DNA from: an uncultured Bacteroides sp.
GTDB taxonomy: Bacteria > Bacteroidota > Bacteroidia > Bacteroidales > Bacteroidaceae
Direction: 5' to 3'
NCBI GenBank assembly: GCA_949292025.1
Contig: CASEYC010000097.1
Coordinates: 24,342-88,341 of the forward strand
Length of the DNA stretch: 64,000 nucleotides
The notes under the pieces were generated by a model that was not told the origin of the DNA, did no database searches, and worked only from the letters and a program-made list of their open reading frames with translations. Position 1 is the stretch's first letter, and each line of letters opens with the position of its first letter. Positions 6,305 through 36,260 of the stretch are shown here, one piece after another. Position numbers and translations under genes: made by a program.

Positions 6305-6395
6305 ACAGGTATACCTGCGTCCGCACTTACCCGTACCTGCGCCCGTGCTTACCCGTACCTGCGCCCGCGCTTACCCGTACCTGCGCCTGAACGCT
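6305..6395. repeat. Tandem array, 22-bp period, about 4 units (GTACCTGCGCCCGTGCTTACCC family)
   Basis: tacctgcg recurs at 6312, 6334, 6356 and 6378. Lies in the GH2-GH3 intergenic region. Confidence 0.9.
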
Positions 6396-6443
6396 GGATA
6401 TGAGCTGATTAGAAGAACATATTAATCGTAACATAAAATCAAT

Positions 6444-8663
6444 ATGAGAAACAAACTCTTTACCACCGTTGCCTGCGCCGCGTTGTTGGCCACAGGCAGC
6501 CTGTCGGCTCAGACGCCGATTTATTTGGATGATACGAAACCCATCGAAGAGCGTGTGCAGGATGCCCTGGGCCGCATGACGTTGGAGGAGAAAGTGGCCC
6601 TTTGCCATGCTTACGGCAAGTTTGCCAGTGCCGGCGTGCCCCGCCTCGGCATTCCCGAGCTGTGGTGGAGCGACGGCCCCCACGGCGTGCGTGCCGAAAT
6701 CAATTGGAACGACTGGGGGTATTCTTACCAGACCAACGATAGTATCACGGCTTTCCCCGCCCTGACCTGCCTGGCCGCCACGTGGAATCCCGAAATGTCC
6801 GCCAAGTATGGCAAGGCCATCGGCGAGGAAGCCGTCTACCGCGAGAAGGACGTGCTGCTCGGTCCCGGTGTCAACATCTACCGTACCCCGCTGAACGGCC
6901 GCAACTTTGAGTACATGGGCGAAGACCCCTACCTGGCCAGCGTGATGTGCGTGCCCTACATCCAGGAAGTGCAGAAGAACGGCGTGGCCGTCAGCGTGAA
7001 GCACTATGCCCTGAACAACCAGGAGTTGTGGCGCGGACATATCGATGTGCAGGCCAGCGACCGTGCCCTCTACGAACTTTACCTGCCCGCCTTCAAGGCC
7101 GCTGTGCAGCAGGGTGGCGCTTGGACCATCATGGGTGCTTACAACCAGTTCCGCGGACAGCACTGCTGCCACCACGAACTGCTGTTGAAGAAAATCCTGA
7201 AGGGCGACTGGGGCTTTGATGGCGTGGTTGTCACCGACTGGGGTGGCGCGCACGACACCTACGAGGCCGCCGTCAACGGGCTGGATGTGGAGATGGGTTC
7301 GTACACCAACGGCCTGACCTCGGAAAGCGCCTTCGGCTACAATGATTACTACCTGGCCGACCCCTACCTGAAGATGCTGAAGGAAGGCAAGGTGCCCCTG
7401 TCCACCGTCGATGACAAGGCCACGCGCATCCTGCGCCTCATCTTCCGCACGGCCATGAACCGCCACAAGCCTTACGGCTCCATCTGCACCGACGAGCACT
7501 ATGCCGCTGCCCGCGAGATTGGCAACGAAGGCATTGTCCTGCTGAAGAATGCCCCGGTGGCGAAGAAAGGCAATCCCCTGTTGCCCATCGACGCTTCCCG
7601 GTATGAAAGCATCCTCGTGGTGGGCGACAACGCCGTGCGTCTGCTGAACGAAGGCGGCGGCTCTTCCGAACTGAAGGTGAAGGACATGGTGTCCCCGCTG
7701 GATGGCCTGCGCGAGCTTTACGGCGACAAGGTGCGCTATGCCCACGGTTATACGGCCGGACGCCCCATGTATGGACGTGTTGATGAGATTCCGCAGGCTG
7801 TGGTCGATTCCCTCCGTGCCGAGGCCGTGGCCATGGCCCGCGAGTCCGACCTGGTCATCGTGGTAGGCGGCTTGAACAAGAACCACCAGCAAGACTGCGA
7901 GGGTGGCGACCGCTTGGAGTATGGCCTGCCTTTCGGCCAAGACGAGCTGATAGAAGAGATACAGGCTGTCAATCCCAACGTGGTGTTGGTGCTCCTCACC
8001 GGCAATGCCGTGGAGATGCCTTGGCTTGACAGGGTGCCTGCCATCGTGCAGGGTTGGTATCTTGGTTCCATGGGTGGCAAGTCCCTAGCCGACGTGATGA
8101 GCGGTGCGGTTTGCCCCAGTGGCAAGTTGCCCTTCTCCTTCCCCGCCAAGCTGACGGACTGTGCCGCACACGCCTTTGACCGCATGGCCTATCCCGGTGA
8201 CAGCATCAAGGAGGAATACAAGGAAGACATCCTCGTGGGCTATCGTTGGCACGACACGAAGAAGATTCCCGCCCTCTTCCCCTTCGGTCACGGCTTGAGC
8301 TACACCACCTTCGAGTATGGCAAGCCCGTCCTCTCTGCTAAGAAGATGGAGCCTGACGGCAAGCTGACCCTTACCGTTTCCGTGAAGAACACGGGCAGCG
8401 TGGCCGGCAAGGAAATCGTGCAGCTCTACGTAGGCGACGAGAAGTGCAGCGTGCTCCGTCCGCAGAAGGAGTTGAAGCACTTCGACAAGATCCTGCTCCA
8501 GCCGGGCGAGGAGAAGACCGTTTCCTTCACCATCACGCCCGAAGACCTCCAGTTCTATGACGACAAGGCCGGGCAGTGGACCGCCGAGCCGGGCAAGTTC
8601 AAACTCTATGTCGGCTCGTCGTCCACGGACATCCGCGGCACGGCGGCGTTCGAGCTGATGTAA
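6444..8663 (+). CDS. GH3 beta-glucosidase-type glycoside hydrolase (secreted)
   Basis: Signal peptide ends ...GSLSAQ. GH3 motifs KHYALNNQE and GFDGVVVTDWGG. C-terminal fibronectin-like domain (KELKHFDKILLQPGEEKTVSF). Confidence 0.9.
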   Translation: MRNKLFTTVACAALLATGSLSAQTPIYLDDTKPIEERVQDALGRMTLEEKVALCHAYGKFASAGVPRLGIPELWWSDGPHGVRAEINWNDWGYSYQTNDSITAFPALTCLAATWNPEMSAKYGKAIGEEAVYREKDVLLGPGVNIYRTPLNGRNFEYMGEDPYLASVMCVPYIQEVQKNGVAVSVKHYALNNQELWRGHIDVQASDRALYELYLPAFKAAVQQGGAWTIMGAYNQFRGQHCCHHELLLKKILKGDWGFDGVVVTDWGGAHDTYEAAVNGLDVEMGSYTNGLTSESAFGYNDYYLADPYLKMLKEGKVPLSTVDDKATRILRLIFRTAMNRHKPYGSICTDEHYAAAREIGNEGIVLLKNAPVAKKGNPLLPIDASRYESILVVGDNAVRLLNEGGGSSELKVKDMVSPLDGLRELYGDKVRYAHGYTAGRPMYGRVDEIPQAVVDSLRAEAVAMARESDLVIVVGGLNKNHQQDCEGGDRLEYGLPFGQDELIEEIQAVNPNVVLVLLTGNAVEMPWLDRVPAIVQGWYLGSMGGKSLADVMSGAVCPSGKLPFSFPAKLTDCAAHAFDRMAYPGDSIKEEYKEDILVGYRWHDTKKIPALFPFGHGLSYTTFEYGKPVLSAKKMEPDGKLTLTVSVKNTGSVAGKEIVQLYVGDEKCSVLRPQKELKHFDKILLQPGEEKTVSFTITPEDLQFYDDKAGQWTAEPGKFKLYVGSSSTDIRGTAAFELM

Positions 8664-11190: not shown

Positions 11191-11216
11191 TTTTTGAAAA
11201 TCCGTTTCTTTTTTCA

Positions 11217-11224
11217 TACCTTTG
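11217..11224 (+). promoter_or_regulatory. Bacteroidota -7 box TACCTTTG
   Basis: Exact TAnnTTTG match upstream of the 11316 gene. Confidence 0.4.
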
Positions 11225-11315
11225 CGGACGTAGCATCCAGGGGAATCTATGAGTCAGGCCAATCCCTGCACGCATGGATTCCCTTATTTATTATACATTT
11301 ATATCCATAAAAGTT

Positions 11316-11765
11316 ATGAAGAAGAAAGTGATTTGGGGCACGCTGATAGTCGTGCTGGTATTGGTGGCGGTCATCAAGGGCAGAAGCTTGTCGGCCTATG
11401 TGGCGGGGGCATGGTTGGAATCGGCAAAAGAGCGCGCGGCAGAGGCCGATGTGCTTAGCTTCCGGTATGCCGGGATTGACTCCCTGTATGAGCGGGAGCG
11501 GTATGCTTATTTCCTGTTTGCCGAAGACCATTCGGCTGGGCAAAGCGACGGTCTGTCCGCCCGCATGGATTCGCTGTTGGTCATCACCTGCGGCGCAGGG
11601 CCGGCTTGGCTGAAGGAAACGGAGGCGGACACCGTGCGTCTGCCCCTCTCGGCATTTGATTTCTGCTTGAAAGAGAATCAATCCATGCAGTTATACCGGG
11701 TGGCCGGCGTGTCGGCAGGCACGGACGGAAACTTGTACCGGTTGAGTAAGATGGTTGTGGAATGA
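11316..11765 (+). CDS. Hypothetical membrane-anchored protein
   Basis: MKKKVIWGTLIVVLVLVAVIKG N-terminal anchor. No recognisable domain. Ends 6 nt before the next gene. Confidence 0.55.
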   Translation: MKKKVIWGTLIVVLVLVAVIKGRSLSAYVAGAWLESAKERAAEADVLSFRYAGIDSLYERERYAYFLFAEDHSAGQSDGLSARMDSLLVITCGAGPAWLKETEADTVRLPLSAFDFCLKENQSMQLYRVAGVSAGTDGNLYRLSKMVVE

Positions 11766-11771
11766 TGGCTT

Positions 11772-12818
11772 ATGTTTAGACAACTCCTTTGTTTTGCCAG
11801 TGTGTGCGCTGCCCTTTGGCTGGCCTCTTGTTCAGTACCATCTTCTTCTGACAATTGGACGGTGGATTTGCTTCATGCGAATGTTGATACCATAGATTAT
11901 TCGACATTTGTCGATTCTGTCAGCTATATACCCTTGGAGGTCTCCGACGAGTGTTTGGTCGGTAAAGTGACTGATGTCATCCTGGCTGATGGGCGTTTGT
12001 TCGTGTTCGATGACAAGCAGCAGGAAATATGGATGTTCAACAGTTCGGGCAAGTACTTGGGCAAACTGGGCCGCAGGGGGGAGGGTCCCGGCGAATACTT
12101 CCATATCGCGCAGGTGGAATATGACCGGCGGGAAAAATTGCTTGCCGTCCTGACGTTCAAGGAAGCTCCCTGTGTGCTGTATTATGCCTTGGACGGCACC
12201 TATGTCAAGTCTGTGGAGTTGGGTATCCAGGCCGATGATTTCAAGATTTGCCCGGACGGCGGTTTCATCCTGTCGTGCGCAGGCCAGGATACCCCGTCCG
12301 CCGGTGTGTATGTGGCCGATGCTGCCGGGGGAAACGTGCGTCCTTTGGTGAAGCGTGCGCCCAATCACTTGGTCTATACGACTTTCGAGTGGGAGTTGTG
12401 TTCCTATAACGATGTCATTTGTTTCCAAGCACCTGTCTTTGCCAATGAAGTGTACCATTGGCAAGGCGATTCTTTGCAGTTGGCATACCCTTTCCGCATG
12501 ATTCCCGAGTTGGGCCAGGACTACGAAGCGACTGTATCCTTGCAGCACATGACGGATTACATCCGCACGAATTACGTGGAGGGAGAAAGATGGATTTACG
12601 CCACCTATTGGTCTGCGGATCCGGACAGGGATTTGCGTGTATGGCTGTATTCGAAGTCGGATGGTAAATCCTGGGTGGGCAAAGGGCTGCGTAACGACAT
12701 GGATGCACGTGGCTCGGCAGCCTGGACCTCGTTCACGGACGGGAATGTGTTTGTCTTGAGCGAAGAGCCGGAAAATCCGGATGACAATCCGGTGATTCGG
12801 ATTCTCCATTTGAAGTGA
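11772..12818 (+). CDS. 6-bladed beta-propeller lipoprotein (BF3164-like family), paralog 1
   Basis: Lipobox ALWLASC. GRRGEGPGEY motif is shared with the 19365 paralog (GGGPGELY). C-terminal DDNPVIRILHLK tail is shared with paralog 3. Confidence 0.7.
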   Translation: MFRQLLCFASVCAALWLASCSVPSSSDNWTVDLLHANVDTIDYSTFVDSVSYIPLEVSDECLVGKVTDVILADGRLFVFDDKQQEIWMFNSSGKYLGKLGRRGEGPGEYFHIAQVEYDRREKLLAVLTFKEAPCVLYYALDGTYVKSVELGIQADDFKICPDGGFILSCAGQDTPSAGVYVADAAGGNVRPLVKRAPNHLVYTTFEWELCSYNDVICFQAPVFANEVYHWQGDSLQLAYPFRMIPELGQDYEATVSLQHMTDYIRTNYVEGERWIYATYWSADPDRDLRVWLYSKSDGKSWVGKGLRNDMDARGSAAWTSFTDGNVFVLSEEPENPDDNPVIRILHLK

Positions 12819-13234: not shown

Positions 13235-14860
13235 ATGAGAAATTTATGTGGCCTTCTGCTCCTTTTCTGTCTGTTTTCAGCTTGCTCAGGCGGGGGAAGC
13301 CATTCGCGGACGTTGCTTGCGCGTGCCGATTCGTTGTTGGATGTGCAGGCGGACAGCGCATTGCGCCTGTTGCGGCAGGTCTCGCCCCGTCGGTTGGCGG
13401 ACAGGGACGAGCGGATGTATTATGCCCTGCTGTTGTTGCAAGCCAAGTACAAGAACTTCCTCCCGATGACAGGGAGCGATTCGTTGCTGCGCGAGGTGGC
13501 TTCCTACTATGCCCGTACGGGCGATGCCGCCATGCAGGCGCGTGCCTGCTACCTCTTGGGCGGGGTGTACGCCGAACGGCAGGAGGCAGACCGCGCCTTC
13601 AGGGCCTATCACGAAGCGGAACAGTTGGCCCGGCGGGCGGAGGACGGGCGGATTTTGTGCCTGGTGCTCAACCAGTTGGCGCACCTTTGCCTGAACCATG
13701 GCATGGCGGCGCGGGGCGACTCCTTGTATGTGGAGTCCGGACGGCTGGCGCGGCAGGTGGGGGACAGCGTGCGCTGGGCGGAAGCATTGTTGCGCCGGGG
13801 AGTGTATGCCTTGTCACTGGGGGATAGTGCCCACTCCCGGGCAGAACGGCTGATAGAAGAGGGGTACGGACTGGCGCGGCGGTTGCGGTCTGCACGGCTG
13901 TTGCAAATGGCGTATCTCACCCGAAGCGTGTTCTATGGTAATTCCGGGCGAGCTACGCAAGCGTTGGCCGAGGCTAAGGGGTATTTAGAGAATATGCGGG
14001 CAGATTCTGTCGGTTTGGCACGTGCTTATTGCTTGTTGGGAGGCACTTATTTTCAAATGCAGTGGTATGATTCAGCAGAGGTTTATTTGCGTCGGGGCTT
14101 GCTTGCTGGTGATTATGACACAAAGGAAATAGCCTGTGCCTTGTTGGCACGCATTGCCACTTCTCAAGGAGATCAGGAACAGGCTACAGAATGGGAAAAG
14201 CAAAGTTTGGAAAACAAAGTCAAACGGCAAGCTTTGGTGCAGGAGACTAATATGGCTGTGGTTGCCAAGGTGGTTGAACTGGAATCGGTTTTGAGGACCC
14301 GTGATGCCAAGATATATAGGTTGTCTTGGGGCACTGTGATCCTTGTCCTGTTGTTGGGCGGTTGCAGTGTGGTCCTGTGGCTTGTTTGGCGGAAGAAGCG
14401 GAATGTACAACTGCCTGTCAGGCCAATTCCTTCCGAAACGGAAAGGCTGGAAGTTGAGCCAAGTGGGTGGGATTATTTGGCGTTCGGGCAACGAATGAAA
14501 GAGACCGGTTCGTATCGGTTGTTGGTATCCATTTTGGATTATTATAAGAAGCATGCCGACTATGAGCGGCATTGGGACATGAACAAACAGTATGATTTTT
14601 TCAAGCAGGTGGATGTCTTGCTTCCCGGGCATCGGACAGCATTACAGATGCGTTTCCCCGGATTGGAGGAGGGGGAGGTTTTCTGTTGTTACCTGTATAT
14701 GTTGGGACTTTCGGACGAACAAGTTGGCATATTGCTCGAAAGGAACAGAAGTACGACCTACCGAAGACGCAAGTCTATGATGCAGAATGAAATGGGGCTG
14801 GCTACCACAAAGTTGGAGCATTTGGTGCAGGCTTGCCAAATAGTTCCAGAGGTGCACTGA
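13235..14860 (+). CDS. Membrane-tethered regulator: lipoprotein signal + TPR region + single TM + C-terminal HTH
   Basis: Lipobox LFCLFSAC. TPR-like repeats. TM LSWGTVILVLLLGGCSVVLWLVW (about 14324..14389) followed by RKKR. C-terminal LGLSDEQVGILLERNRSTTYRRRKSMMQ looks like an HTH. Same architecture as the 39049 gene. Confidence 0.65.
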   Translation: MRNLCGLLLLFCLFSACSGGGSHSRTLLARADSLLDVQADSALRLLRQVSPRRLADRDERMYYALLLLQAKYKNFLPMTGSDSLLREVASYYARTGDAAMQARACYLLGGVYAERQEADRAFRAYHEAEQLARRAEDGRILCLVLNQLAHLCLNHGMAARGDSLYVESGRLARQVGDSVRWAEALLRRGVYALSLGDSAHSRAERLIEEGYGLARRLRSARLLQMAYLTRSVFYGNSGRATQALAEAKGYLENMRADSVGLARAYCLLGGTYFQMQWYDSAEVYLRRGLLAGDYDTKEIACALLARIATSQGDQEQATEWEKQSLENKVKRQALVQETNMAVVAKVVELESVLRTRDAKIYRLSWGTVILVLLLGGCSVVLWLVWRKKRNVQLPVRPIPSETERLEVEPSGWDYLAFGQRMKETGSYRLLVSILDYYKKHADYERHWDMNKQYDFFKQVDVLLPGHRTALQMRFPGLEEGEVFCCYLYMLGLSDEQVGILLERNRSTTYRRRKSMMQNEMGLATTKLEHLVQACQIVPEVH

Positions 14861-15005: not shown

Positions 15006-15386
15006 ATGAAAAATTTAGTAATTGCTTTTTTAGTATGCTTGAGTCTCCCGTTGGGCATTTGTCATGCGGAAGAGAAGGAGTCTGAAACGGAACAGGAGCC
15101 CATACACCTTGAAAGATTAATTTGGGGTGAGCCTCCTACACGTTCTTTGCAACCGGCAGTGCCGGAGGCTTATGTGTGCGGTAGCGAAGTGAACGTCACG
15201 TTTGACGAACCGGTGTCGTATGTCAACGTCAGCATCTGCAAGGCAATCAGTGACGAGCCGGTCTATGAGACGGCATATACCTATGCTGCCGATGTATGCA
15301 TTGATTTGTCCGCTTGGGGCAAAGGCAATTATGTGATTTATCTGGAGACGGAAACCGCTGTCTATAAGGGCAGCTTTTCGTTGTGA
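15006..15386 (+). CDS. Small secreted protein (DUF3244-like, from memory)
   Basis: Signal peptide MKNLVIAFLVCLSLPLGICHA. About 100-aa beta-rich body ending ...YLETETAVYKGSFSL. Confidence 0.5.
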   Translation: MKNLVIAFLVCLSLPLGICHAEEKESETEQEPIHLERLIWGEPPTRSLQPAVPEAYVCGSEVNVTFDEPVSYVNVSICKAISDEPVYETAYTYAADVCIDLSAWGKGNYVIYLETETAVYKGSFSL

Positions 15387-15595: not shown

Positions 15596-15823
15596 ATGAA
15601 AAAGAAAGCAGTAAGAATAGCCCTGCTTGCCGTGGTTGCAGCGGTGGCAGGATATGGAGCTTATCAGGCTCAAATGGAAGATGAAATGGTGTCGGATTTG
15701 GCGTTGGCTAATGTGGAGGCGTTAGCTGCTGGAGAAGACGGTTGGAATTGTCGCATAGATTTAGATTACACACATTATTGCAATTATTATGATTATGGTT
15801 CTTTGTGTCCTTGCGGATTTTAA
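15596..15823 (+). CDS. NVEALA-family small precursor peptide 1 (75 aa, 4-Cys C-terminal core)
   Basis: MKKK + hydrophobic helix, then the literal motif VSDLALANVEALA. Followed by AGEDGWNCRIDLDYTHYCNYYDYGSLCPCGF. Confidence 0.8.
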   Translation: MKKKAVRIALLAVVAAVAGYGAYQAQMEDEMVSDLALANVEALAAGEDGWNCRIDLDYTHYCNYYDYGSLCPCGF

Positions 15824-15918: not shown

Positions 15919-17073
15919 ATGATTAGAGTCATTCTTTTAGTATTTTTGTTGTGTGCGTGTATTTCTTGCAATAAGCGTTCAGAAACAGGGCGTTTGGACA
16001 CGCACGAATTGAGGGCCACTGGCGAAGTAAAGAAATTCGAGTTGGATACGGATGTCCGTTACAATTGCAATTATCTTTATCTGTTCCGGGACAAGGCCGG
16101 GCGTGAATACCTGTCTTTCCTGAACTATCGCACGAATCAAATATACTTTTACGACTGGAGCACGGCGCAGTGTGTGCGCAAGCTGGAACTGAATGCTGAG
16201 GGACCGGACGGGGTGGTCTTGTGTTCCGGCTATTATGTGAAGGACTTTGACAATATCTATGTGACGACTTATGCCTATAAGGGACTGATACGTGTGGACA
16301 CGACCGCTCATATTGTGCAGAAGATTCCTTATGGTGTGACGCAGGACGGTTATGAGGTGGTGCCTGCTTATGCGCCTTCATCGGTGCACTACAATGCCCC
16401 TGTGATTGTGGGGGACAGCATTTATATTGTGCAACCCCCTTCCCGCTTTTGTCCTGTGGAGCAGACTCCCCTGTCGGTCGTGATAGACACGGCGCGGCAT
16501 CAGTGCACGTCGTTCCCGCTCACGTACGAAGTATTGACAGACAAGGAGATGTCGACCAATTATTATTCTGTTTTCAGCCGCATATTCGACGGGGAGAATT
16601 TTATCTACTCTTTTGCGGTGAAGGAGGACATCCTTGTCGTCTCGCCGGACCACCGGCGTGTGGAGCCGATAAGGGTCAAGAGCCGTTACTTGGACGATGT
16701 GACGGACGTGCAGGAGAACTCGTCTGCCGGTCCCAAACTGAATCTGGAGTATCCCCGCTATGGCGATTTGATCTATGACCCCTACCGGGAGGTCTATTAC
16801 CGTTTTGCCTATCCTCGGGTGGAGTTGGAGAATGATATGAACTGGTGGGGAAAAGCCTTGTTCGGACGTAAAAAATTCTCGGTAATTATCCTGGATAAGG
16901 ACTTCCGGACTATCGGCGAGACCTTGTTTCCTGAATCCGTCTACAATTCCTACGTGTTTTTTGTCAGGGAGGACGGTTTGTATATCAGTCGTGATTACCA
17001 GATGCTTTATGGCAATCAGTCGGATGATTATATGACGTTTGAACGGATGGAATTGATTGGGAAAGACAACTGA
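15919..17073 (+). CDS. Beta-propeller-type lipoprotein, paralog 2 (BF3164/DUF4221-like, family assignment tentative)
   Basis: Lipobox LLCACISC. 384 aa and beta-rich. Its 3' end is duplicated at 12907..13007. Confidence 0.6.
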   Translation: MIRVILLVFLLCACISCNKRSETGRLDTHELRATGEVKKFELDTDVRYNCNYLYLFRDKAGREYLSFLNYRTNQIYFYDWSTAQCVRKLELNAEGPDGVVLCSGYYVKDFDNIYVTTYAYKGLIRVDTTAHIVQKIPYGVTQDGYEVVPAYAPSSVHYNAPVIVGDSIYIVQPPSRFCPVEQTPLSVVIDTARHQCTSFPLTYEVLTDKEMSTNYYSVFSRIFDGENFIYSFAVKEDILVVSPDHRRVEPIRVKSRYLDDVTDVQENSSAGPKLNLEYPRYGDLIYDPYREVYYRFAYPRVELENDMNWWGKALFGRKKFSVIILDKDFRTIGETLFPESVYNSYVFFVREDGLYISRDYQMLYGNQSDDYMTFERMELIGKDN

Positions 17074-17104
17074 TATATTTAATTTTTGGAAAGCGTTTTT
17101 TTGT

Positions 17105-17992
17105 ATGGTGAAAAAAGTGTGTATAGTTCTATCGTTATTCTTATTGTTATTGAGTTGTTCATACGTGGATGAACGTGGACAACAAATTGAAAAGATTGTG
17201 AGAGAATGGGAAGGCAAGACGATTATTTTCCCTTCCAACCTGAAATTCATATCCCAAGGGCAAGAAATTCCCTCCTTGCTGGATGGAAATTGGGACTATG
17301 CGATAGTTTCTTACACAGATTCTACTGGGTGTACTAGTTGCAAGTTACAATTAGATAGATGGAAAGATCTGATTGACAGAAGTGATTCTATTTTTGGTAG
17401 GAATATAATTTTCTTGTTTGTTATACATCCATTGGAGCGAGAAGATTTGTTGCGTATGCTGAGAGAGTATAAGTTTGATTACCCAATATGTATAGATGAA
17501 GATAATCTTTTTGATAGACAAAATGATTTACCCGATGATGATTTGTTTCGGACTTTCTTATTAAATAAAAAGAGGAAAGTTGTGGCAATAGGTAATCCTG
17601 TTTATAATCCTAAAATACGTGATTTATATGGGGATGTCATTCAAAATAGGAAACAGAGTAAAATACAATCAGGTAAAGAAGAATTATTTACTAAGGTTTC
17701 AATCTCATCTTTTAGTTTGTCGTTGGGTGGTTTCCCTTGGCAAGAGCCGCAATCCGCCACCCTCACCCTGACGAACACGGGCACCCGCCCCTTGGTCGTC
17801 CAGGACGTGGTCACCTCGTGCGGATGCCTGACGGTGGATTATCCCCGTGAGCCGGTGCGACCGGGCGGCGAGGCCGCGTTGCGCCTGACCTACAAGGCGG
17901 ACAACCCGGGCTACTTCCGCAAGACGGTGACGGTGTATGCCAATGCGGAAGAGGCACCGCTCAGGGTGCAGGTGTCCGGGAATGCGGAATAA
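17105..17992 (+). CDS. Thioredoxin-fold (TlpA-like, CxxC) lipoprotein fused to a C-terminal DUF1573 domain
   Basis: Lipobox LLLLSC at the 17105 start. CTSC motif in YTDSTGCTSCKLQL. C-terminal LTNTGTRPLVVQDVVTSCGCLTVDYP is DUF1573-like. A sharp AT-rich to GC-rich switch near 17745 coincides with the domain boundary. Confidence 0.7.
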   Translation: MVKKVCIVLSLFLLLLSCSYVDERGQQIEKIVREWEGKTIIFPSNLKFISQGQEIPSLLDGNWDYAIVSYTDSTGCTSCKLQLDRWKDLIDRSDSIFGRNIIFLFVIHPLEREDLLRMLREYKFDYPICIDEDNLFDRQNDLPDDDLFRTFLLNKKRKVVAIGNPVYNPKIRDLYGDVIQNRKQSKIQSGKEELFTKVSISSFSLSLGGFPWQEPQSATLTLTNTGTRPLVVQDVVTSCGCLTVDYPREPVRPGGEAALRLTYKADNPGYFRKTVTVYANAEEAPLRVQVSGNAE

Positions 17993-18015: not shown

Positions 18016-18885
18016 ATGTTCCGTTTGCTGTTAAACCGTCTGTTGGACATCTGCTTCTGGCTCTGCGTGGCCTTGGCGGCCTACGTGGTGCTGCAGGTGT
18101 TCGTCATCACGTCGTTCCGCATTCCGTCAGACTCCATGCAGCCCGCCCTGTTGCCGGGTGACCGCATCTGGGTGGACAAGTTGTCCGGCGGCGCCCGCCT
18201 GTTCGACCTGTTGGGCGCGGCGGAGGGCGAGGACGTGCGCATCCGGCGCGTGCCGGGCTGGCGGAAGTTCCGGCGGGGCGACGTGCTGGTGTTCAACTTC
18301 CCCTACGGCGAGGGCCGGTGGGACAGCATCGCGCTGGACGTGATGAAGTACTACGTGAAGCGTTGCATCGCCGTGCCGGGCGACACGCTGGAGATTCGCG
18401 GCGGGTGGTACCGCATCCGCGGGGTGGACGCCCCCCTGGGCAACCCGGCGGCGCAGCGGGAGATAGCCCAACTGCCGGACAGCGGGGCGCCGGGCGTGGT
18501 GATGGAGACCTATCCTTGGAACAAGCGCCTGGGCTGGACAATCAAGGAGTTCGGCCCGCTGGTGGTGCCCCGCCGGGGGCAGACGGTGCGGATGGACAGC
18601 ACGGCGTGCCGCCTCTACCGCAACTTGGTGAACTGGGAGCAGAAACGCCCCCTGCATATCGACCGGGACGGGCGCACGTGGTTGGGCGACAGCCTGATAA
18701 CGCACTACACCTTCCGCGAGGACTACTACTTCGTGGGCGGCGACAAGGCCCTGAACTCGCAGGATTCCCGCTACTGGGGGCTGCTGCCCGGGCCGTACAT
18801 CGTGGGCCGCGCCTGGCGCGTGTGGTGGTCGGAAGACGCGGACGGACGGGTGAGGTGGGACCGGGTTATGAATAAGATAATGTAG
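18016..18885 (+). CDS. lepB: Signal peptidase I (S26 family)
   Basis: N-terminal TM. Catalytic Ser box IPSDSMQPALLPGD. Lys box YVKRCIAVPGD. GDKALNSQDSRYWG. Confidence 0.85.
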   Translation: MFRLLLNRLLDICFWLCVALAAYVVLQVFVITSFRIPSDSMQPALLPGDRIWVDKLSGGARLFDLLGAAEGEDVRIRRVPGWRKFRRGDVLVFNFPYGEGRWDSIALDVMKYYVKRCIAVPGDTLEIRGGWYRIRGVDAPLGNPAAQREIAQLPDSGAPGVVMETYPWNKRLGWTIKEFGPLVVPRRGQTVRMDSTACRLYRNLVNWEQKRPLHIDRDGRTWLGDSLITHYTFREDYYFVGGDKALNSQDSRYWGLLPGPYIVGRAWRVWWSEDADGRVRWDRVMNKIM

Positions 18886-18895
18886 AAAACGATAT

Positions 18896-18912
18896 AAGCA
18901 TTTTGAGATTTG
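18896..18912. repeat. Left arm of a perfect 17-bp inverted repeat bracketing peptide gene 2
   Basis: aagcattttgagatttg is the exact reverse complement of 19338..19354. Confidence 0.95.
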
Positions 18913-18953
18913 GTGAAGTTGATAATGATTAATTTAATATTTAAGTGAAGAAA

Positions 18954-19325
18954 ATGAAAAGAAAATTTGTTTATGTAGTATTTATTGCTGCTGTAGCGGC
19001 AATGGCGGTTTTTAACGTCAATTTATTAGTAAAAAATAATGTGAGTGATTTGCCTTCTTCCTTATTGGAATTGGAAGCTTTGGCTGAAGAGGAAAAGCAT
19101 GAGTGGAACGATTGGCCTTTATTTGGATCGCAAGGTTTTACTAAAGATGAGCGGGAAGAAAAAAGGCCCTGTCCCATAATAGAATCGGGAAGCGGAAATG
19201 TAAATGGTTCGTATGGTGGAGGTTCCGTAGGAGGCGGAGGCTCTCATTCACAAGTAAATCCCAACGAGAGATATGAAATAATATGTCCTTATGGTTATTC
19301 CAATTGCACATCCATAGGTTGTTAA
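18954..19325 (+). CDS. NVEALA-like small precursor peptide 2 (123 aa from ATG; Gly-rich, 4-Cys core)
   Basis: MKRKFVYVVFIAAVAAMAV anchor. VSDLPSSLLELEALA leader motif. Core contains PCP...GGGSVGGGGS...ICPYGYSNCTSIGC. Confidence 0.7.
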   Translation: MKRKFVYVVFIAAVAAMAVFNVNLLVKNNVSDLPSSLLELEALAEEEKHEWNDWPLFGSQGFTKDEREEKRPCPIIESGSGNVNGSYGGGSVGGGGSHSQVNPNERYEIICPYGYSNCTSIGC

Positions 19326-19337
19326 AATGAAGGAACG

Positions 19338-19354
19338 CAAATCTCAAAATGCTT
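19338..19354. repeat. Right arm of the 17-bp inverted repeat
   Basis: caaatctcaaaatgctt, 10 nt before the ATG at 19365. Confidence 0.95.
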
Positions 19355-19364
19355 TTAGAAGATA

Positions 19365-20606
19365 ATGGTTATGATTAGATTGTTAGTAGTATTTGCAGCC
19401 CTTGTGCTGTGCTTGTCTGGATGTGGCGGAGGCTCCCGGCAAGGATTCAACTTTACTGCCTCCGAGATAGCATCCCTTTGTTTGGATTCCACGGAACTTC
19501 TGCCGGCGGATGTGTCTTCCGCTGTGCGCGTGGATTTGAACCCGTTCCTGGGGGACAAGGAGTTTGAGTTTGGAAACTTGGTCCGTTCTTTGCGTTTCAT
19601 CCCGCTGGAAACAACTGATGCCAGCCTGTTGGCCAACATCTACAAGGTGGTGCTGACGGACCGTCATGTCTACGTGCATGACGACTTCAAGGGTGGAGGC
19701 CTTGTGATCTTTACTTCCAAGGGCAAGTTTGTCCGTCGCATTTCCCATGGCGGCGGGCCGGGCGAGTTGTACCAGTTGTCGGACATGGCGTATGACCCGT
19801 CCACGGACCGCCTGTTGGTTTACCAGCACCCGTTCTTGCTTTTTTATACAGCAGATGGGGAATACCTGGAGCAGAAGAAGTTGCCGTTTGGCTTCTACAA
19901 TTTCCAGCCTATCCCCGGCGGCTATGTGTTCAAGACGATAGACGGCGTGGGCAACCATCATTTGGGTGCAAAGCAGGACTATACGCTCCTGGTGACCGAC
20001 ACGACTTTCAGGCTGAGGCAGGCGGCACTTCCCGTCGCGCCGGACAAAACGCATTTTGGGGGATACCGTTATTTGTATGATGCCGAGGACGGTATCCGTG
20101 TGACCGGCAAATTCAACGATACCATCTATTGTTACGACCCCCTGCGCCATGACTTGGCGGCTGCGTGCGTGCTCGATTATTCCGACAAGAAACTGCCGGA
20201 CTCCCAAGTGAAGGACCCGCGGGGCGAGTTCACGGACATTTTGATGGGCAATGACTATTATTATTTCCTGGGTGAATGTTTGGAGACTCCTTCCCACCAG
20301 GTCTTTTTCTTGCGCAACGACTGGCGGAGACACAGGTTGGTGGTGTATCGGGACAAGCAGACGGGTGGAATGACCGGTGGCGCGACCTATCATTTTGACT
20401 TCCATGTGCTCCCTCCTGTGGGGTTCCCCAGGGCGACATACGGTGACAACTTCGTTTCTTTGCATTATCCCAATCCTCAGGATTCGTGCCTGCAATCCAG
20501 TCCTTTGATTTCGCCGGAGGATAAGCGGATGATAGCCGGGTTGAAGGCGGATGATAATCCTGTTTTGGCGTTGTTCCAGCTGAAAAGTATAGACGGGCAT
20601 GAATAA
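19365..20606 (+). CDS. 6-bladed beta-propeller lipoprotein, paralog 3
   Basis: Lipobox LVLCLSGC. GGGPGELY motif. C-terminal ADDNPVLALFQLK tail. Confidence 0.7.
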   Translation: MVMIRLLVVFAALVLCLSGCGGGSRQGFNFTASEIASLCLDSTELLPADVSSAVRVDLNPFLGDKEFEFGNLVRSLRFIPLETTDASLLANIYKVVLTDRHVYVHDDFKGGGLVIFTSKGKFVRRISHGGGPGELYQLSDMAYDPSTDRLLVYQHPFLLFYTADGEYLEQKKLPFGFYNFQPIPGGYVFKTIDGVGNHHLGAKQDYTLLVTDTTFRLRQAALPVAPDKTHFGGYRYLYDAEDGIRVTGKFNDTIYCYDPLRHDLAAACVLDYSDKKLPDSQVKDPRGEFTDILMGNDYYYFLGECLETPSHQVFFLRNDWRRHRLVVYRDKQTGGMTGGATYHFDFHVLPPVGFPRATYGDNFVSLHYPNPQDSCLQSSPLISPEDKRMIAGLKADDNPVLALFQLKSIDGHE

Positions 20607-21210
20607 ATTCCTGTGGATAGTGGCAGTAGTACTGCTGGTGATGAATGCCGTACTGGGTATCAATTACTGGCAGTATAAAAGGCAGGCTTCATTCCGATTG
20701 CAAGTGTTGCAGGGGGATATGAAGAGTTTGATACCCTTGCAAGAGAACTGGGAAAGTGCGATGGGTAATGATGGATATAGGCTTGATGGCATTCAAGGTA
20801 AGGATACGAATCATAACCTTGTGGGTTTGAATGAAATGTTTCTCAATCATGAGGATAAGATTCTGGTCTGCCGTTTTTCTGAATTGGATTGCGAAAGTTG
20901 TATAGACTATGCCATTAAGAGTATGAAAGAGTATAGTGCCCGGATGGGCATAGAGAACATTCTTTATTTAGGGAATTATCGGAATAACCGGATTTTTAAT
21001 CGTCAAAGAGCAATGTGTGGCATTGATTCATGCAGGTCTTTGAATGTTGCGAAGTTGGGACTTCCCATAGAGGATTTGAATCAGCCTTATTATTTCGTAC
21101 TGGACAGTTCTTTGCTCGTATCCAATGTTTTTATTCCAAATAAAACCACTCAAAGGATGTTGAATACATATTTTGATGTATTGTGTGACAAGTATTTTGC
21201 AGAGGAATAA
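20599..21210 (+). CDS. Membrane-anchored thioredoxin-fold protein (CxxC)
   Basis: N-terminal TM FLWIVAVVLLVMNAVLGI. CESC motif in CRFSELDCESCIDYAI. AT-rich. Overlaps the previous gene by 8 nt. Confidence 0.6.
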   Translation: MNKFLWIVAVVLLVMNAVLGINYWQYKRQASFRLQVLQGDMKSLIPLQENWESAMGNDGYRLDGIQGKDTNHNLVGLNEMFLNHEDKILVCRFSELDCESCIDYAIKSMKEYSARMGIENILYLGNYRNNRIFNRQRAMCGIDSCRSLNVAKLGLPIEDLNQPYYFVLDSSLLVSNVFIPNKTTQRMLNTYFDVLCDKYFAEE

Positions 21211-21222
21211 AAATTAAGTGAG

Positions 21223-23139
21223 ATGAACATACGGATGAGCTTATACGGATGTGTTTTGCTTACTCTGCTGGCCGCCTGCTCCTCCCCCTTGGACAGCCGC
21301 GTGTCCTCCGTCTTGGACTTTGCCGGCGACAACCGCGGCGAGCTGGAGGCCGTCCTGGACCACTACCGGGACGACCCGGAGAAGCAGCACGCCGCCCGCC
21401 TGCTGATAGCGGAGATGGAAGGGGCGTACTATTATGACGCGCCGGAGGTGGACAGCCTGAGGGCTGTGGTGAGGGACACCCGCTGGGCGGCCACCACGCC
21501 GGACCCGGAGCGGGCGGCGCGGTGGAAGGCGTTCGACTACCGGACGCTGCCCAAGCAGTATGACGCGCGGACACTGACGGCGGACTACCTGACGGAACAC
21601 ATCGACCGCGCGTTCGAGGCGTGGCGCAAGTGGCCTTGGGGCAGGCATTACACCTATGGGGACTTCTGCCGCTATATCCTGCCCTACCGCATCGGCGACG
21701 AGACGCCCGACCGCTGGATGGGGAGGTATGCCGATTACTTCGGCCACCTGCTGGACTCGCTCCACGTGGGCAACGACCCGGTGGTGGCGGCGGACACGGC
21801 GATGCGCCACATCGCGAAGCTGAGGTACTTCTATATGGCGGAATATGACACGCCCCACCTGGGGGCATCGCACCTGCTGGAAGTGCGGTCCGGTGGTTGC
21901 CGCGAGCATACGGACCTGCTGGTGTATGTGTTCCGTTCGCTGGGCATCCCGGCGACGAAAGATATGTTCCTCTGTGCGCCCGACTTCCGGCAATCGCACA
22001 CCTGGGCCGTGCTGAAGGACACCACGGGCCGCTTCATCCCCGTGGAGCTGACGGAGAACAAGGCGCCCAGGAACCTGCGCGGCTGGCAGAACCGCCGCAA
22101 CAAAGGCAAGGTCTACCGCCTGCACAACCTGCGGCTGGAGACGCCGGACTTCGCGGGCGACTATCATCGTGAAGACGTGACAGCCGAGTATTATTCTGCC
22201 AACCGGGTGGAAGTGCCCGGCGTGGAGACCGGCGGCGACGGCGTGCTGGCCGTGTTTGCATCGGAGGGCTGGAGACCGGTGGGCGGCTACCGCAAGCGGT
22301 GGGGCAAGGCCGTGGTGGAGAATGTGCAGGAAGGGATGGTTTTCCAGCCCCTGGCCGTGCGGGACGGGCAACTGCGCGAGAGTGGTTGGTCCTTCTTCGT
22401 GCGCGAAGGCCGGGCCGTGGTGCTAAGGCCGGACACGGCGCGGCGCGTCAGGGTGAGGCTGACGCGGAAATACCCCATTGGGTGGCGGCTGAAGGAGCGG
22501 CTGGACCAGGTGGCGGGCAACTGGCTGGAGGGCAGCAACGACCCGGCTTTCCGGACGGCGGACAGCCTGGACCGGGTGGACGGCAGCCGCATGGACGTGC
22601 TGGGGCGTTGTCTGTCCGTGCCTGCGGGCAGGGTTTACCGCTATCTGCGCTTATGGCCCGCCCCGGGGCGCGTGGTACACCTGGCCGAGCTGGAGTGTTT
22701 TGCCGACACGCTGGGACGGGAGCCGTTGCCCTATCGCATCGTGTCGTGCGGCACGCCCAATTATCTGGTGTCGGGCACGCAGTGGCCGGAGCATTTGCAC
22801 GATGGCGATGTCCTGAGCGTGTATCGGACCCAAGAGCGGGACGTGCCCGTGGTGGTGGACTTCGGATGTCCCGTGCCTTTGCGTGCCGTCGTGCTGACAC
22901 CGCACAACGATGACAACTTTGTGCGCCGGGGCGAGACCTACGAGCTGTTCTACCAAGACGGCGTGAACGGGTGGACTTCGCTGGGGCGGCAGGTGGCGGC
23001 GACTGGCTATTTGGAGTATGACAATGTGCCGGACAACGCCCTGCTGTGGCTGCGTGACCTGACGAAGGGGCGCGAGGAACAGGTGTTCCGCTGGGTGGAC
23101 GGACAGCAAGTATTCTTGGGGACGATGAAGGGAGGATGA
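21223..23139 (+). CDS. Transglutaminase-like (Cys-protease fold) lipoprotein with large C-terminal extension
   Basis: Lipobox LLTLLAAC. Core motif RSGGCREHTDLLVYVFRSLGIPA with downstream QSHTWAV. The C-terminal half may be discoidin-like (not verified). Confidence 0.7.
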   Translation: MNIRMSLYGCVLLTLLAACSSPLDSRVSSVLDFAGDNRGELEAVLDHYRDDPEKQHAARLLIAEMEGAYYYDAPEVDSLRAVVRDTRWAATTPDPERAARWKAFDYRTLPKQYDARTLTADYLTEHIDRAFEAWRKWPWGRHYTYGDFCRYILPYRIGDETPDRWMGRYADYFGHLLDSLHVGNDPVVAADTAMRHIAKLRYFYMAEYDTPHLGASHLLEVRSGGCREHTDLLVYVFRSLGIPATKDMFLCAPDFRQSHTWAVLKDTTGRFIPVELTENKAPRNLRGWQNRRNKGKVYRLHNLRLETPDFAGDYHREDVTAEYYSANRVEVPGVETGGDGVLAVFASEGWRPVGGYRKRWGKAVVENVQEGMVFQPLAVRDGQLRESGWSFFVREGRAVVLRPDTARRVRVRLTRKYPIGWRLKERLDQVAGNWLEGSNDPAFRTADSLDRVDGSRMDVLGRCLSVPAGRVYRYLRLWPAPGRVVHLAELECFADTLGREPLPYRIVSCGTPNYLVSGTQWPEHLHDGDVLSVYRTQERDVPVVVDFGCPVPLRAVVLTPHNDDNFVRRGETYELFYQDGVNGWTSLGRQVAATGYLEYDNVPDNALLWLRDLTKGREEQVFRWVDGQQVFLGTMKGG

Positions 23140-23146
23140 GGCCGGA

Positions 23147-24748
23147 ATGAAGAAAGGAATGACGATAGCAGGGTGGGGACTGGCGGCAGGTTTGCTGCTC
23201 TCGCTGGTCTGTGCCGATGACCCGACGCTGCCTTCCGGCGAGACTGTGGGGCAGTGGCTGTGGTTCGACCGGGCGGCGTTGTGTGCGGCGGCCTGCATCG
23301 GGCTGGGGTGCTGCTTCTGGCGGTGGGCGAAAGGCCCGGCGTTGGCGGCGGCAGTCTCGTGGGCCTTGGTGGGCTGGGCGGCGGTGCAGGCGGTCGTCGG
23401 GTTGGGCCAGTTGTATGGCTTTTCTGTTTCCGGCCATGCGCTCTATGCGTTGACGGGCAGCTTTTTCAATCCCGGACCCTATTCCGGCTATCTGGCGATG
23501 GCCCTGCCCGTGTGTTTGCACGAATACCTGTGCTGCCGGGACCGGTCGTCGGTGGGACGCTATGCGGCGGGGCTGTCCGGTCTGCTTATCCTCAGCGTGT
23601 TACCGGCGGGCATGAGCCGTTCGGCCTGGCTGGCGGCGGCTGTGTCGTGCCTGTGGGTGTACGGGTGCCATGCCGGTTGGGGCAGGCGGCTGCGGGCGTT
23701 CCGGCTGCGGAGGCCGGCTGTCTTCTGGGGCGCGGTGGGCGGCGTGCTGGCCTTGGCCTGTCTGTCCAGCCTGCTGCTGTACCAGTTGAAGCCCGATTCG
23801 GCTTTGGGGCGCCTCTTTATGTGGCGGATGTCCCTCCGTGCCGTGGCGGAACAGCCATGGACGGGGCACGGGACCGATGGATTTGCCGCTGCATACGGCG
23901 AAGCGCAGGAGGCTTATTTTGCCGCTGGCGGCTATGCCTCGTGGGAAGAGCGCGTGGCAGGCAGTCCGGAATATGCTTTCAACGAGTACTTGCAGGCGGT
24001 GGTGGAGCTGGGCGTGCCGTTGACCCTGTTGCTGCTGGCGGTGTTGTCTTGGGGCTGGTTCCGGGGGCTGCGGGCGGGGCGGCTGGGCTGTTGCGGGGCT
24101 TTGCTGTCGTTGGGTGTTTTCGCCTGTTCGTCCTATCCGCTGCAGTTGCCCGTGTTCGTCGTGACGGGGGCTTGCCTGTGGGCGGCTTGCGTGTGCAGCG
24201 GCAGTTGGCGTGGCTGGTTGGCGGTGGCCGTGGTGGCCGGGGGCATGGGCGCGTGGCGCCTGTCCAATGACCGGGCGGGGGTGGCGGCTTGCCGGGAATG
24301 GATGAATGCGCGGGTGTTGTATCAGGCGGGGGCGTATGCCTCGGCTGAAAAGGAATATGCGCGGCTGTATCCGGTGCTGAAGGACCGGGCGGCGTTCCTC
24401 TTCGAATACGGGCACGGGCTGCACCGGCAGGAGAAACATGCGGCCTCCAACCGGATTCTGGCCGAGGCCCTGCAACGCAGTTGCGACCCGATGATCCTGA
24501 ACGTGATGGGGAAGAACTTCCAGGCCTTGGGCGACGGGCGGCAGGCGGAGCACTGCTTCCTGCGGGCAGTCCACCGCTTGCCGGGGCGGATTTATCCGTA
24601 CTACCTGCTGGCCCGGTTGTATGCTTCGCCGATGTACCGCAATCCGGAGAAGCTGGCGAGGATGAAGCGGGTGGTGCTGACTAAGACGCCGAAAGTGGAG
24701 TCTGCGGCCATCCGGGAAATGCGGGAGGAAGTGGAGAAACTGGAGTGA
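23147..24748 (+). CDS. O-antigen-ligase (Wzy_C)-like polytopic membrane protein with C-terminal TPR domain
   Basis: About 10 hydrophobic segments. Loop motif PEYAFNEYLQAVVELGVP resembles the Wzy_C signature. C-terminal TPR-like repeats (YQAGAYASAEKEYARLY...). Confidence 0.65.
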   Translation: MKKGMTIAGWGLAAGLLLSLVCADDPTLPSGETVGQWLWFDRAALCAAACIGLGCCFWRWAKGPALAAAVSWALVGWAAVQAVVGLGQLYGFSVSGHALYALTGSFFNPGPYSGYLAMALPVCLHEYLCCRDRSSVGRYAAGLSGLLILSVLPAGMSRSAWLAAAVSCLWVYGCHAGWGRRLRAFRLRRPAVFWGAVGGVLALACLSSLLLYQLKPDSALGRLFMWRMSLRAVAEQPWTGHGTDGFAAAYGEAQEAYFAAGGYASWEERVAGSPEYAFNEYLQAVVELGVPLTLLLLAVLSWGWFRGLRAGRLGCCGALLSLGVFACSSYPLQLPVFVVTGACLWAACVCSGSWRGWLAVAVVAGGMGAWRLSNDRAGVAACREWMNARVLYQAGAYASAEKEYARLYPVLKDRAAFLFEYGHGLHRQEKHAASNRILAEALQRSCDPMILNVMGKNFQALGDGRQAEHCFLRAVHRLPGRIYPYYLLARLYASPMYRNPEKLARMKRVVLTKTPKVESAAIREMREEVEKLE

Positions 24749-35610: not shown

Positions 35611-35618
35611 CAAATGTA
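35611..35618 (-). promoter_or_regulatory. Bacteroidota -7 box (TACATTTG on minus strand)
   Basis: Plus-strand caaatgta, 29 nt upstream of the tsaC ATG. Confidence 0.4.
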
Positions 35619-35652
35619 CGCACAATCCTTTGGGTAGCAAAGGAAATAGCCG

Positions 35653-35660
35653 TATCTTTG
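35653..35660 (+). promoter_or_regulatory. Bacteroidota -7 box TATCTTTG
   Basis: Exact match 36 nt upstream of the ATG at 35696. Confidence 0.45.
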
Positions 35661-35695: not shown

Positions 35696-35926
35696 ATGAA
35701 AACAACGGTTGCCCTGGAAAACCTTTGGCTCTACCTGCAGTCACTGCCCAAAAGCAACAAGCAGTGGCTGTCCGAGAAGTTGCAGGAAGACCTGCATCAG
35801 GAAGAAACAGCGTATATCAGCAAGGAGGAAGTGCTGGCGGGGATTGATGCGGGGCTGAAAGATGTTGTGGCCGGACGTACACGCCCGGCGGAAGAATTAT
35901 TGGAGGAATTGCGCAATGGATTATAA
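35696..35926 (+). CDS. Putative type II antitoxin (76 aa)
   Basis: Small acidic protein whose 3' end overlaps the toxin start by 11 nt. Family not recognised. Confidence 0.5.
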   Translation: MKTTVALENLWLYLQSLPKSNKQWLSEKLQEDLHQEETAYISKEEVLAGIDAGLKDVVAGRTRPAEELLEELRNGL

Positions 35927-36260
35927 AGTGAAAACGGCAAGGTCTTTTGAGAAAGAGCTTAAAAGACTGGGAAAACGCTATGTCTCCATTGTGGACGATT
36001 ATGCCAATCTGTTGGAAGAACTCTATGCCAATCCGCAGCTCGGCACCGACTTGGGCGGTGGCCTGCGCAAAATCCGTATGGCCATCACCTCCAAGGGGCG
36101 GGGCAAGAGCGGCGGTGCCCGTGTCATAACCTTTACGGTGGTTGTGGCTGTGGAGGAAACGGAAATCAACCTGCTGTATATCTACGATAAGGCGGAACGC
36201 GCTTCTATCAGCCGGAAGGAGATAGAGGAATTGTTGAGGAAGAACGGGCTGAAAGGTTAA
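35916..36260 (+). CDS. RelE/ParE-superfamily toxin
   Basis: MDYKVKTARSFEKELKRL...KGRGKSGGARVITF...LLYIYDKAE is a pattern typical of RelE/HigB-like toxins. Confidence 0.65.
   Translation: MDYKVKTARSFEKELKRLGKRYVSIVDDYANLLEELYANPQLGTDLGGGLRKIRMAITSKGRGKSGGARVITFTVVVAVEETEINLLYIYDKAERASISRKEIEELLRKNGLKG

Follow-up and report, generated by a model that had tools for sequence, protein, structure and literature searches.

A putative long-range RNA helix around a precursor-peptide cistron in a variable Bacteroides gene module

Pairing between 5' and 3' flanks, as well as structures at the 3' side of precursor genes, are already known in bacteria, and the long-range form that we describe here is a variant of them. 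In rRNA operons, the processing stems around 16S and 23S rRNA are RNase III substrates. Bacteriocin/RiPP-type operons carry a stem-loop directly after the precursor-peptide gene, where it serves as an attenuator, terminator or stabiliser, and in hbs of Bacillus subtilis the 5'-UTR pairs with the 3'-UTR. The same kind of 5'-UTR/3'-UTR pairing is found in the icaR mRNA of Staphylococcus aureus, in which the duplex is a substrate for RNase III and affects both translation and stability (PMC3868564). Inverted repeats can also act at the DNA level: invertible promoters and intragenic invertons have been described in Bacteroidales (PMC11892184, PMC10028968). Bacteroidota invertons form groups with common inverted repeat (IR) motifs that are tied to particular invertases, they usually carry the promoter motif TAnnTTTG, and invertases are enriched within 5 kb of them (PMC11892184).

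A first-pass annotation of the DNA analysed here had offered an explanation of each kind for a perfect 17-bp inverted repeat around a small peptide gene: an invertible cassette that would switch the gene ON or OFF relative to its operon, or arms that pair in the polycistronic mRNA. On balance, comparison among related loci and predicted RNA folds lead us to think that the repeat probably represents the two strands of a long-range 5'/3' RNA helix, which would set the precursor-peptide cistron apart.

The repeat lies in a 64-kb stretch of DNA, which we refer to as the window, from a Bacteroides of high GC content (58%); a neighbouring peptidase has its best genome matches in uncultured Bacteroides, at 81–82% identity. 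Table 1 lists the features of the locus.

Table 1. Coordinates of the inverted repeat arms and of the surrounding genes in the window.
Feature	Position	Strand	Remark
TPR/DUF6377-like protein, putative regulator	13235-14860	+	
DUF3244	15006-15386	+	
Classical NVEALA peptide	15596-15823	+	
DUF4221	15919-17073	+	
DUF1573 protein	17057-17992	+	N-terminal half without family match
S26 signal peptidase I gene	18016-18885	+	Directly upstream of 5' arm
Variable three-gene module (peptide, DUF5128, 203-aa protein)	18886-21222	+	Lower GC
5' arm	18893-18912 (perfect core 18896-18912)	+	42-61 nt before peptide ATG; 7-10 nt past S26 stop (18885)
Peptide-2 gene, 123 aa	18954-19325	+	NVEALA-like leader
3' arm	19338-19357 (perfect core 19338-19354)	+	Begins 13 nt past peptide stop; 8-11 nt before DUF5128 ATG (19365)
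DUF5128 six-bladed beta-propeller gene	19365-20606	+	After peptide gene, same strand
203-aa protein, no family match	20599-21210	+	Third gene of the module
Transglutaminase-like protein	21223-23139	+	
Homologue of Wzy_C (PF04932)-bearing proteins from related loci	23147-24748	+	

All 13 lineages examined have a DUF5128 gene downstream of the peptide gene and on its strand. The 203-aa gene comes third in the module in most lineages with a long enough contig; in L070, a TolB_like gene occupies this third position. The GC3 of the peptide gene is 0.29, that of the DUF5128 gene 0.66 and that of the 203-aa gene 0.44, compared to 0.85–0.92 in the flanking genes and about 0.8–0.9 for the genome. L008, the closest relative, has the transglutaminase-like and Wzy-like genes immediately after its S26 gene. 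Given that the three genes are absent from L008 and low in GC3, we treat them as a variable, lower-GC module, of which the inverted repeat encloses the first gene only. The empty site in L008 (654-776) contains no remnant or relative of either arm. In the window, no terminator or promoter consensus separates the S26 gene from the 5' arm, from which we infer that transcripts read through from S26 into the module.

Several other features of the region were observed along the way. Within ORF 17057-17992, whose N-terminal half we take, purely as a guess, to be thioredoxin/TlpA-like, GC content jumps abruptly from about 30–40% to about 64% at about 17650-17700, which suggests a recombination junction inside this ORF; its low-GC part contains a perfect Bacteroides promoter consensus (TTTG-N20-TAnnTTTG) at 17446-17477. 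Another DUF5128 propeller gene (11772-12818) follows a 163-aa ORF and has a perfect promoter consensus ahead of it (11193-11224), and 11193-12818 may be the start of the peptide-cluster region. Further along, two perfect promoter consensuses overlap divergently at 35611-35641 (−) and 35629-35660 (+), adjoining a RelE/ParE-like toxin ORF (35862-36260).

The peptide itself has a hydrophobic N-terminal leader of the NVEALA-like type and a conserved, Cys-containing C-terminal domain. It scores 18.6 bits against the Pfam family NVEALA (PF14055), under the cutoff of 27, and has no match in NCBIfam; because this score falls below the cutoff while some relatives have a precomputed PF14055 match, we regard it as a member of a related, unnamed subfamily. 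A profile search recovered about 69 clusters of full-length relatives (P0001–P0069, 107–164 aa), almost all of them unnamed, and with so many homologous protein clusters ORF 18954-19325 can be taken as real. The C-terminal motif common to the family is QGxTKDERExxRPCP…GSHSQxNPxGRxEIxCPYGxxNCxxxxC. A tblastn search with the peptide against plasmids gave no match, a profile-based locus search of metagenome contigs yielded 5 loci only, and the term 'NVEALA' is absent from the searchable literature. Two loci have a second, 78-aa ORF upstream (L047 753-989 and L048 399-635), whose leader is 81% like that of the peptide over the first 53 residues and whose C-terminal part differs; these ORFs and the peptide look like leader-sharing paralogues. 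In L062 (162-605), an extra Cys-rich insertion (…NGCLYCGGDGVRSGGSTCTYCSAG…) lies between the leader and the conserved domain.

At the repeat, AAGCATTTTGAGATTTG (18896-18912) and the segment 19338-19354 are exact reverse complements of each other over 17 bp. A repeat finder extends the arms to 20 nt at 95% (one mismatch), with 425 nt separating them, and they occupy the two short gaps on either side of ORF 18954-19325, the 3' arm ending in GC-TTTTA. When up to three mismatches were permitted, the 17-mer matched twice in the 64-kb window. Two matches occurred in none of 100 dinucleotide shuffles, and an inverted repeat of at least 17 nt arose in none of 200 shuffles of both 120-nt flanks. The repeat is real and non-random. 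The first-pass annotation was thus right about the perfect repeat, about the position of its arms in the two intergenic gaps and about a chance origin being very unlikely; the search for the 17-mer that it had proposed recovered the two arms within the 64-kb window and no further copies.

Beyond the window, the 17-mer had 54 single-copy matches in IMG/VR, in line with chance and without paired arms, and the two-arm pattern, with the cassette in either orientation, had no match in JGI metagenome contigs. An Rfam scan of 18500-19800 returned a sub-threshold chance match only (STnc560, E = 0.4), and a terminator scan of both gaps, including 19326-19364, found none. A sigma-70 promoter scan uses a model that is not applicable to Bacteroides. 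We also considered a MITE or other terminal-inverted-repeat element and rejected it: the variable insert is 18886-21222 rather than the repeat-bounded segment, 64 kb contain no copies of the 17-mer besides the two arms, and there is no target-site duplication, the outer bases (…CGATAT / TTTAGAAG…) not being direct repeats.

If the repeat were part of a DNA switch, a recombinase encoded elsewhere would flip the 425-bp segment and thereby switch the peptide gene OFF with respect to the operon. As in Bacteroidales invertons, a short inverted repeat surrounds a few-hundred-bp segment in a gut Bacteroides, a genus rich in invertons; the pair (17/20 bp, 425 nt apart) encloses less than about 1 kb, and a perfect 17-bp repeat around 425 bp is within the inverton size range (PMC11892184). 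What sets the locus apart is that it has no alternate orientation, nearby invertase, inner promoter motif or conserved IR motif. After a flip, the expected junction would read …GATATAAGCATTTTGAGATTTG followed by CGTTCCTTCATTTTAACAACC…, and the opposite orientation was not found in the assembled contigs that we fetched (window, L001, L002, L036, L037-L046, L127, L130 and L131), none of which ends at an arm. Both arms are present, in collinear sequence, in the window's own lineage (L001, L002) and in L036, which is 96% identical. In the P0002 lineage (L037-L046), with 67% peptide identity and a different upstream gene, both arms contain a 15–16-nt core of the window's repeat, and the peptide gene runs in the direction of the DUF5128 gene in 10 of 10 contigs among those listed, of 24. 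In every fetched contig that is homologous or bears a repeat, from many samples, the two genes are co-oriented.

The search for the machinery of inversion pointed the same way. A Pfam scan of the sizeable ORFs in 11.3–26 kb and of other candidate ORFs in the window revealed no recombinase (integrase/resolvase) domain, so that there is no invertase within 5 kb or among the other window ORFs scanned. TAnnTTTG is absent from both strands of 18850-19400. For the full consensus TTTG-N19-21-TAnnTTTG, the window has four matches (11193, 17446, 35611 and 35629) against 0.22 expected, none of them near the cassette. The flanking repeats at homologous loci are unrelated in sequence, and some contain G·T mismatches; this is not as expected for the sites of a sequence-specific invertase, and the strand asymmetry described below would be meaningless for a DNA site. 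The ON/OFF flip proposed in the first-pass annotation is therefore not borne out: among the public assemblies fetched, none has an inverted cassette. Since rare flipping is compatible with assembly data, we keep a DNA switch in the list of explanations as a very improbable one.

We compared the flanks of the peptide gene across the 13 lineages with DNA context, using RNAduplex on the 100 nt before the ATG and the 60 nt after the stop codon, with 500 dinucleotide shuffles each. Complementarity exceeds chance in the window (p = 0.004), L037 (0.008), L127 (0.002), L130 (0.002) and L050 (0.02), and is not significant in the other eight. Combined over the 13 lineages, Fisher's p is 2e-5, and p ≤ 0.05 in 5 of 13 corresponds to a binomial p of 3e-4. 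Flanking repeats are thus not universal in the peptide family, and the helix cannot be required for module function given that eight of 13 lineages are without it. As a control, we examined eight classical NVEALA genes from the same type of locus, none of which reaches p ≤ 0.01.

The sequences that pair differ among lineages. The window and L037 share the helix GCATTTTGAGATTTG, L127 has ATAAAGCATCATGGAATT (18 bp with one G·U), L130 has an interrupted helix of about 40 bp, and L050 has a 10-bp repeat, TTACTGAAAC, so that strong independent helix sequences number only three (window/L037, L127 and L130). An apparent repeat in L070, TTTTTATAAAA, was dismissed as a low-complexity palindrome. Position is more constant than sequence: the 3' strand always starts 3–14 nt after the stop codon, with the perfect cores of the window, L037, L050 and L127 beginning at +13/+14, while on the 5' side the ~12 nt closest to the ATG, if not more, are unpaired and the perfect cores end 27–42 nt upstream. 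When every upstream flank was tested against every downstream flank, the cognate pair topped all 22–24 non-cognate pairs in the window, L037, L127 and L130. In L050, it ranked 5th of 25, and we count this lineage as marginal for that reason.

These helices also appear in predicted folds of the entire RNA. The minimum free energy (MFE) structure of the window's 492-nt RNA is predicted to contain 21 long-range pairs with a mean pair probability of 0.875; the corresponding predicted values are 0.90 for L037/L046, 0.90 for L130 and 0.64 for L127, and the 10-bp repeat of L050 is not in that lineage's MFE structure. Long-range pairs are readily predicted in AU-rich RNA. We judged the retention of pairing on whole helices, the flanks of different lineages not being alignable column by column. 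Between the window and L037, the arm sequence is the same, which amounts to conservation rather than true compensatory change, with one outer pair lost in L037. The 2.3-kb module is 76% identical between these two and has 16 perfect runs of at least 14 nt; the arms fall in runs of 14 and 21 nt, the latter (19337-19357) being the second-longest. As perfect runs of such length are no rarity there, conservation of the arms is by itself weak evidence.

In six of six cases, the duplex is 4–9 kcal/mol more stable in the sense RNA than in the antisense RNA, because imperfect positions form G·U in the sense RNA, where the opposite strand would have C·A. At one inner position in the P0002 lineage, L037 has U·G and L046 has C-G, and the helices contain no A·C single mismatches. 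With few independent lineages, this bias is supportive rather than decisive, and it favours RNA in that a DNA site would have no such asymmetry. Another idea is that the arms are two DNA-binding or promoter-like sites, either weak convergent promoters (sense and antisense) or operators for a regulator that would loop the DNA round the peptide gene. Each arm contains GAGATTTG, which matches five of the six fixed positions of the Bacteroides −7 box TAnnTTTG and is the sole relaxed −7-like match near the 5' arm; in L037, TTTG precedes it at a distance of 20 nt. Two lineages with no more than 67% identity between their peptides have the same arm sequence, and the cluster encodes a putative regulator of the TPR/DUF6377-like type (13235-14860). 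In the window, however, the −33 position is not TTTG, and the 17-mer, being found nowhere else in 64 kb (up to three mismatches), lies upstream of no other cluster gene. Other lineages have quite different complementary flanks, which fits pairing and not a common sequence for protein recognition. We therefore consider paired DNA sites an improbable explanation.

Promoter motifs are distributed in a way that fits a structure dependent on read-through from upstream. Lineages with a helix have no TAnnTTTG in the 600 nt that precede the peptide gene, and L060 and L070 have a promoter motif 27–42 nt upstream of the peptide gene and no helix.

The lineages without a helix tend to have something else after the peptide gene. 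L047, L060, L062, L063, L065, L067/L069 and L128 each have a strong local stem-loop of 11–13 or more pairs, often followed by a U-run. The 39-nt gap in the window folds locally with only −0.9 kcal/mol, and neither L037 (−5.2 kcal/mol) nor L130 (−5.7 kcal/mol), which also have short gaps, contains a local hairpin. These three have the strongest long-range helices. L050 and L127 combine a repeat with a local hairpin, and L070, with a gap of 24 nt, has neither. The link between the lack of a local hairpin and the presence of a helix is marginal (about p = 0.05 by hand calculation, for lineages that are not independent). A very long local hairpin (−41 kcal/mol) was seen in L050, in the 157-nt gap after the peptide gene (6364-6520).

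An intrinsic terminator or local attenuator hairpin can be rejected for the window, as its gap folds so weakly and nothing was detected at 19326-19364. The best reading of the distribution among lineages would be that the helix replaces the local 3' stem-loop that is usual in most other family members. The stem-loops of RiPP-type operons and the hairpins of the seven sister lineages occupy the same place after the peptide stop, and a U-run likewise extends past the 3' arm. They differ from the window in that its upstream half is 425 nt away, across the ORF, so that the entire ORF becomes the loop. In the four strong cases, the 3' strand has a G/C-containing core that leads directly into a run of U (GC-UUUUA, G-UUUUAUUU, GCUA-UUUUUAC), and a matching A-rich stretch opens the 5' strand; to judge from these features, the helix looks like an intrinsic terminator with the ORF as its loop.

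The repeat could also be without present function, as a hitch-hiking by-product of mosaic recombination at the locus, such as a template-switch copy or the remnant of a cassette exchange. The locus is indeed a GC mosaic with recombination junctions, the module is absent from the closest relative, the left arm begins within ~10 nt of the start of homology with L037, and the module contains other conserved runs that are about as long. Yet both arms are unchanged between lineages that differ in about 40–50% of the codons for identical amino acids. Different flanking helices have evolved at the same position in independent lineages, the strongest helices belong to lineages without a local 3' hairpin, and the empty site in L008 holds nothing related. 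A by-product is in our view unlikely, if less so than either DNA-level explanation.

We return to the long-range RNA helix, which the comparative evidence and the predicted energies support as the first-pass annotation's alternative of arms pairing in the polycistronic mRNA. The arms would be the two strands of a helix in the sense transcript that runs from S26 through the peptide gene to DUF5128, with both arms presumably co-transcribed; the later steps are likewise conditional on this. The window helix has 17–20 bp and a predicted duplex energy of about −24 kcal/mol. It would close off the whole peptide cistron, leaving ~40 nt before the peptide ATG unpaired, and would sit 8–27 nt upstream of the DUF5128 start codon. 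Its role could be to set the level of the peptide message relative to the downstream genes, and it probably acts through attenuation, processing or stabilisation.

Three routes, which we do not rank, can be envisaged. The helix may cause attenuation or 3'-end formation, as the 3' arm with its GC and U-run is like the descending half of an intrinsic terminator. Oligonucleotides annealed in trans can stand in for the upstream half of a terminator hairpin, and so a distant partner is physically plausible. Alternatively, the double-stranded stem of 17–20 bp may be cut, for example by RNase III. Finally, the helix may protect both ends of the peptide mRNA and occlude the initiation region of DUF5128, which we propose because 8 nt separate the end of the 3' arm from the ATG of DUF5128.

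Several features of an icaR-like arrangement appear here as well: complementarity beyond chance, a predicted fold of the whole RNA that includes it, and pairing that seems to be kept with changed sequence. In both, complementary segments on either side of a single cistron pair, here by prediction, across the entire ORF. The icaR 3' UTR, however, pairs with the Shine-Dalgarno region and blocks translation of its own gene, whereas the initiation region of the peptide gene would stay free; the cistron here is also internal to an operon, with the 3' arm adjoining the start of the next gene. The helix resembles the processing stems of rRNA operons in being long-range and formed from the flanks of a functional unit within a longer transcript, where such a helix marks excision. 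It differs from them in that the unit is a translated cistron, the helix is shorter (17–20 bp) and a role for RNase III would be by analogy.

It is tempting to speculate further that a 'split terminator', or closed loop, has arisen repeatedly in the peptide operons of Bacteroidales. The entire precursor-peptide ORF would lie in the loop, and 3'-end formation, processing by RNase III and the translation of the gene that follows would all hinge on whether the 5' arm is free. The A-rich 5' strand would stand before the ORF and the 3' strand with its U-run right after the stop codon, and a ribosome that terminates on the S26 gene, 7 nt away, may cover the 5' arm. We regard this broader proposal as doubtful. 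If true, it would provide a new way of coupling the ratio of peptide to enzyme to upstream translation.

For the prediction of invertons from sequence, the locus is a caution: a suitably spaced, perfect 17-bp repeat in a Bacteroides is not necessarily a DNA switch. If the long-range helix works as proposed, it would be a clear case, backed by comparison among lineages, of distant 5' and 3' flanks pairing across a cistron inside an operon in Bacteroidota, where post-transcriptional control is poorly charted and classical Shine-Dalgarno rules are inapplicable. It would also provide an entry point to a widespread but unstudied family of peptides secreted by gut bacteria, and to their propeller-protein partners.
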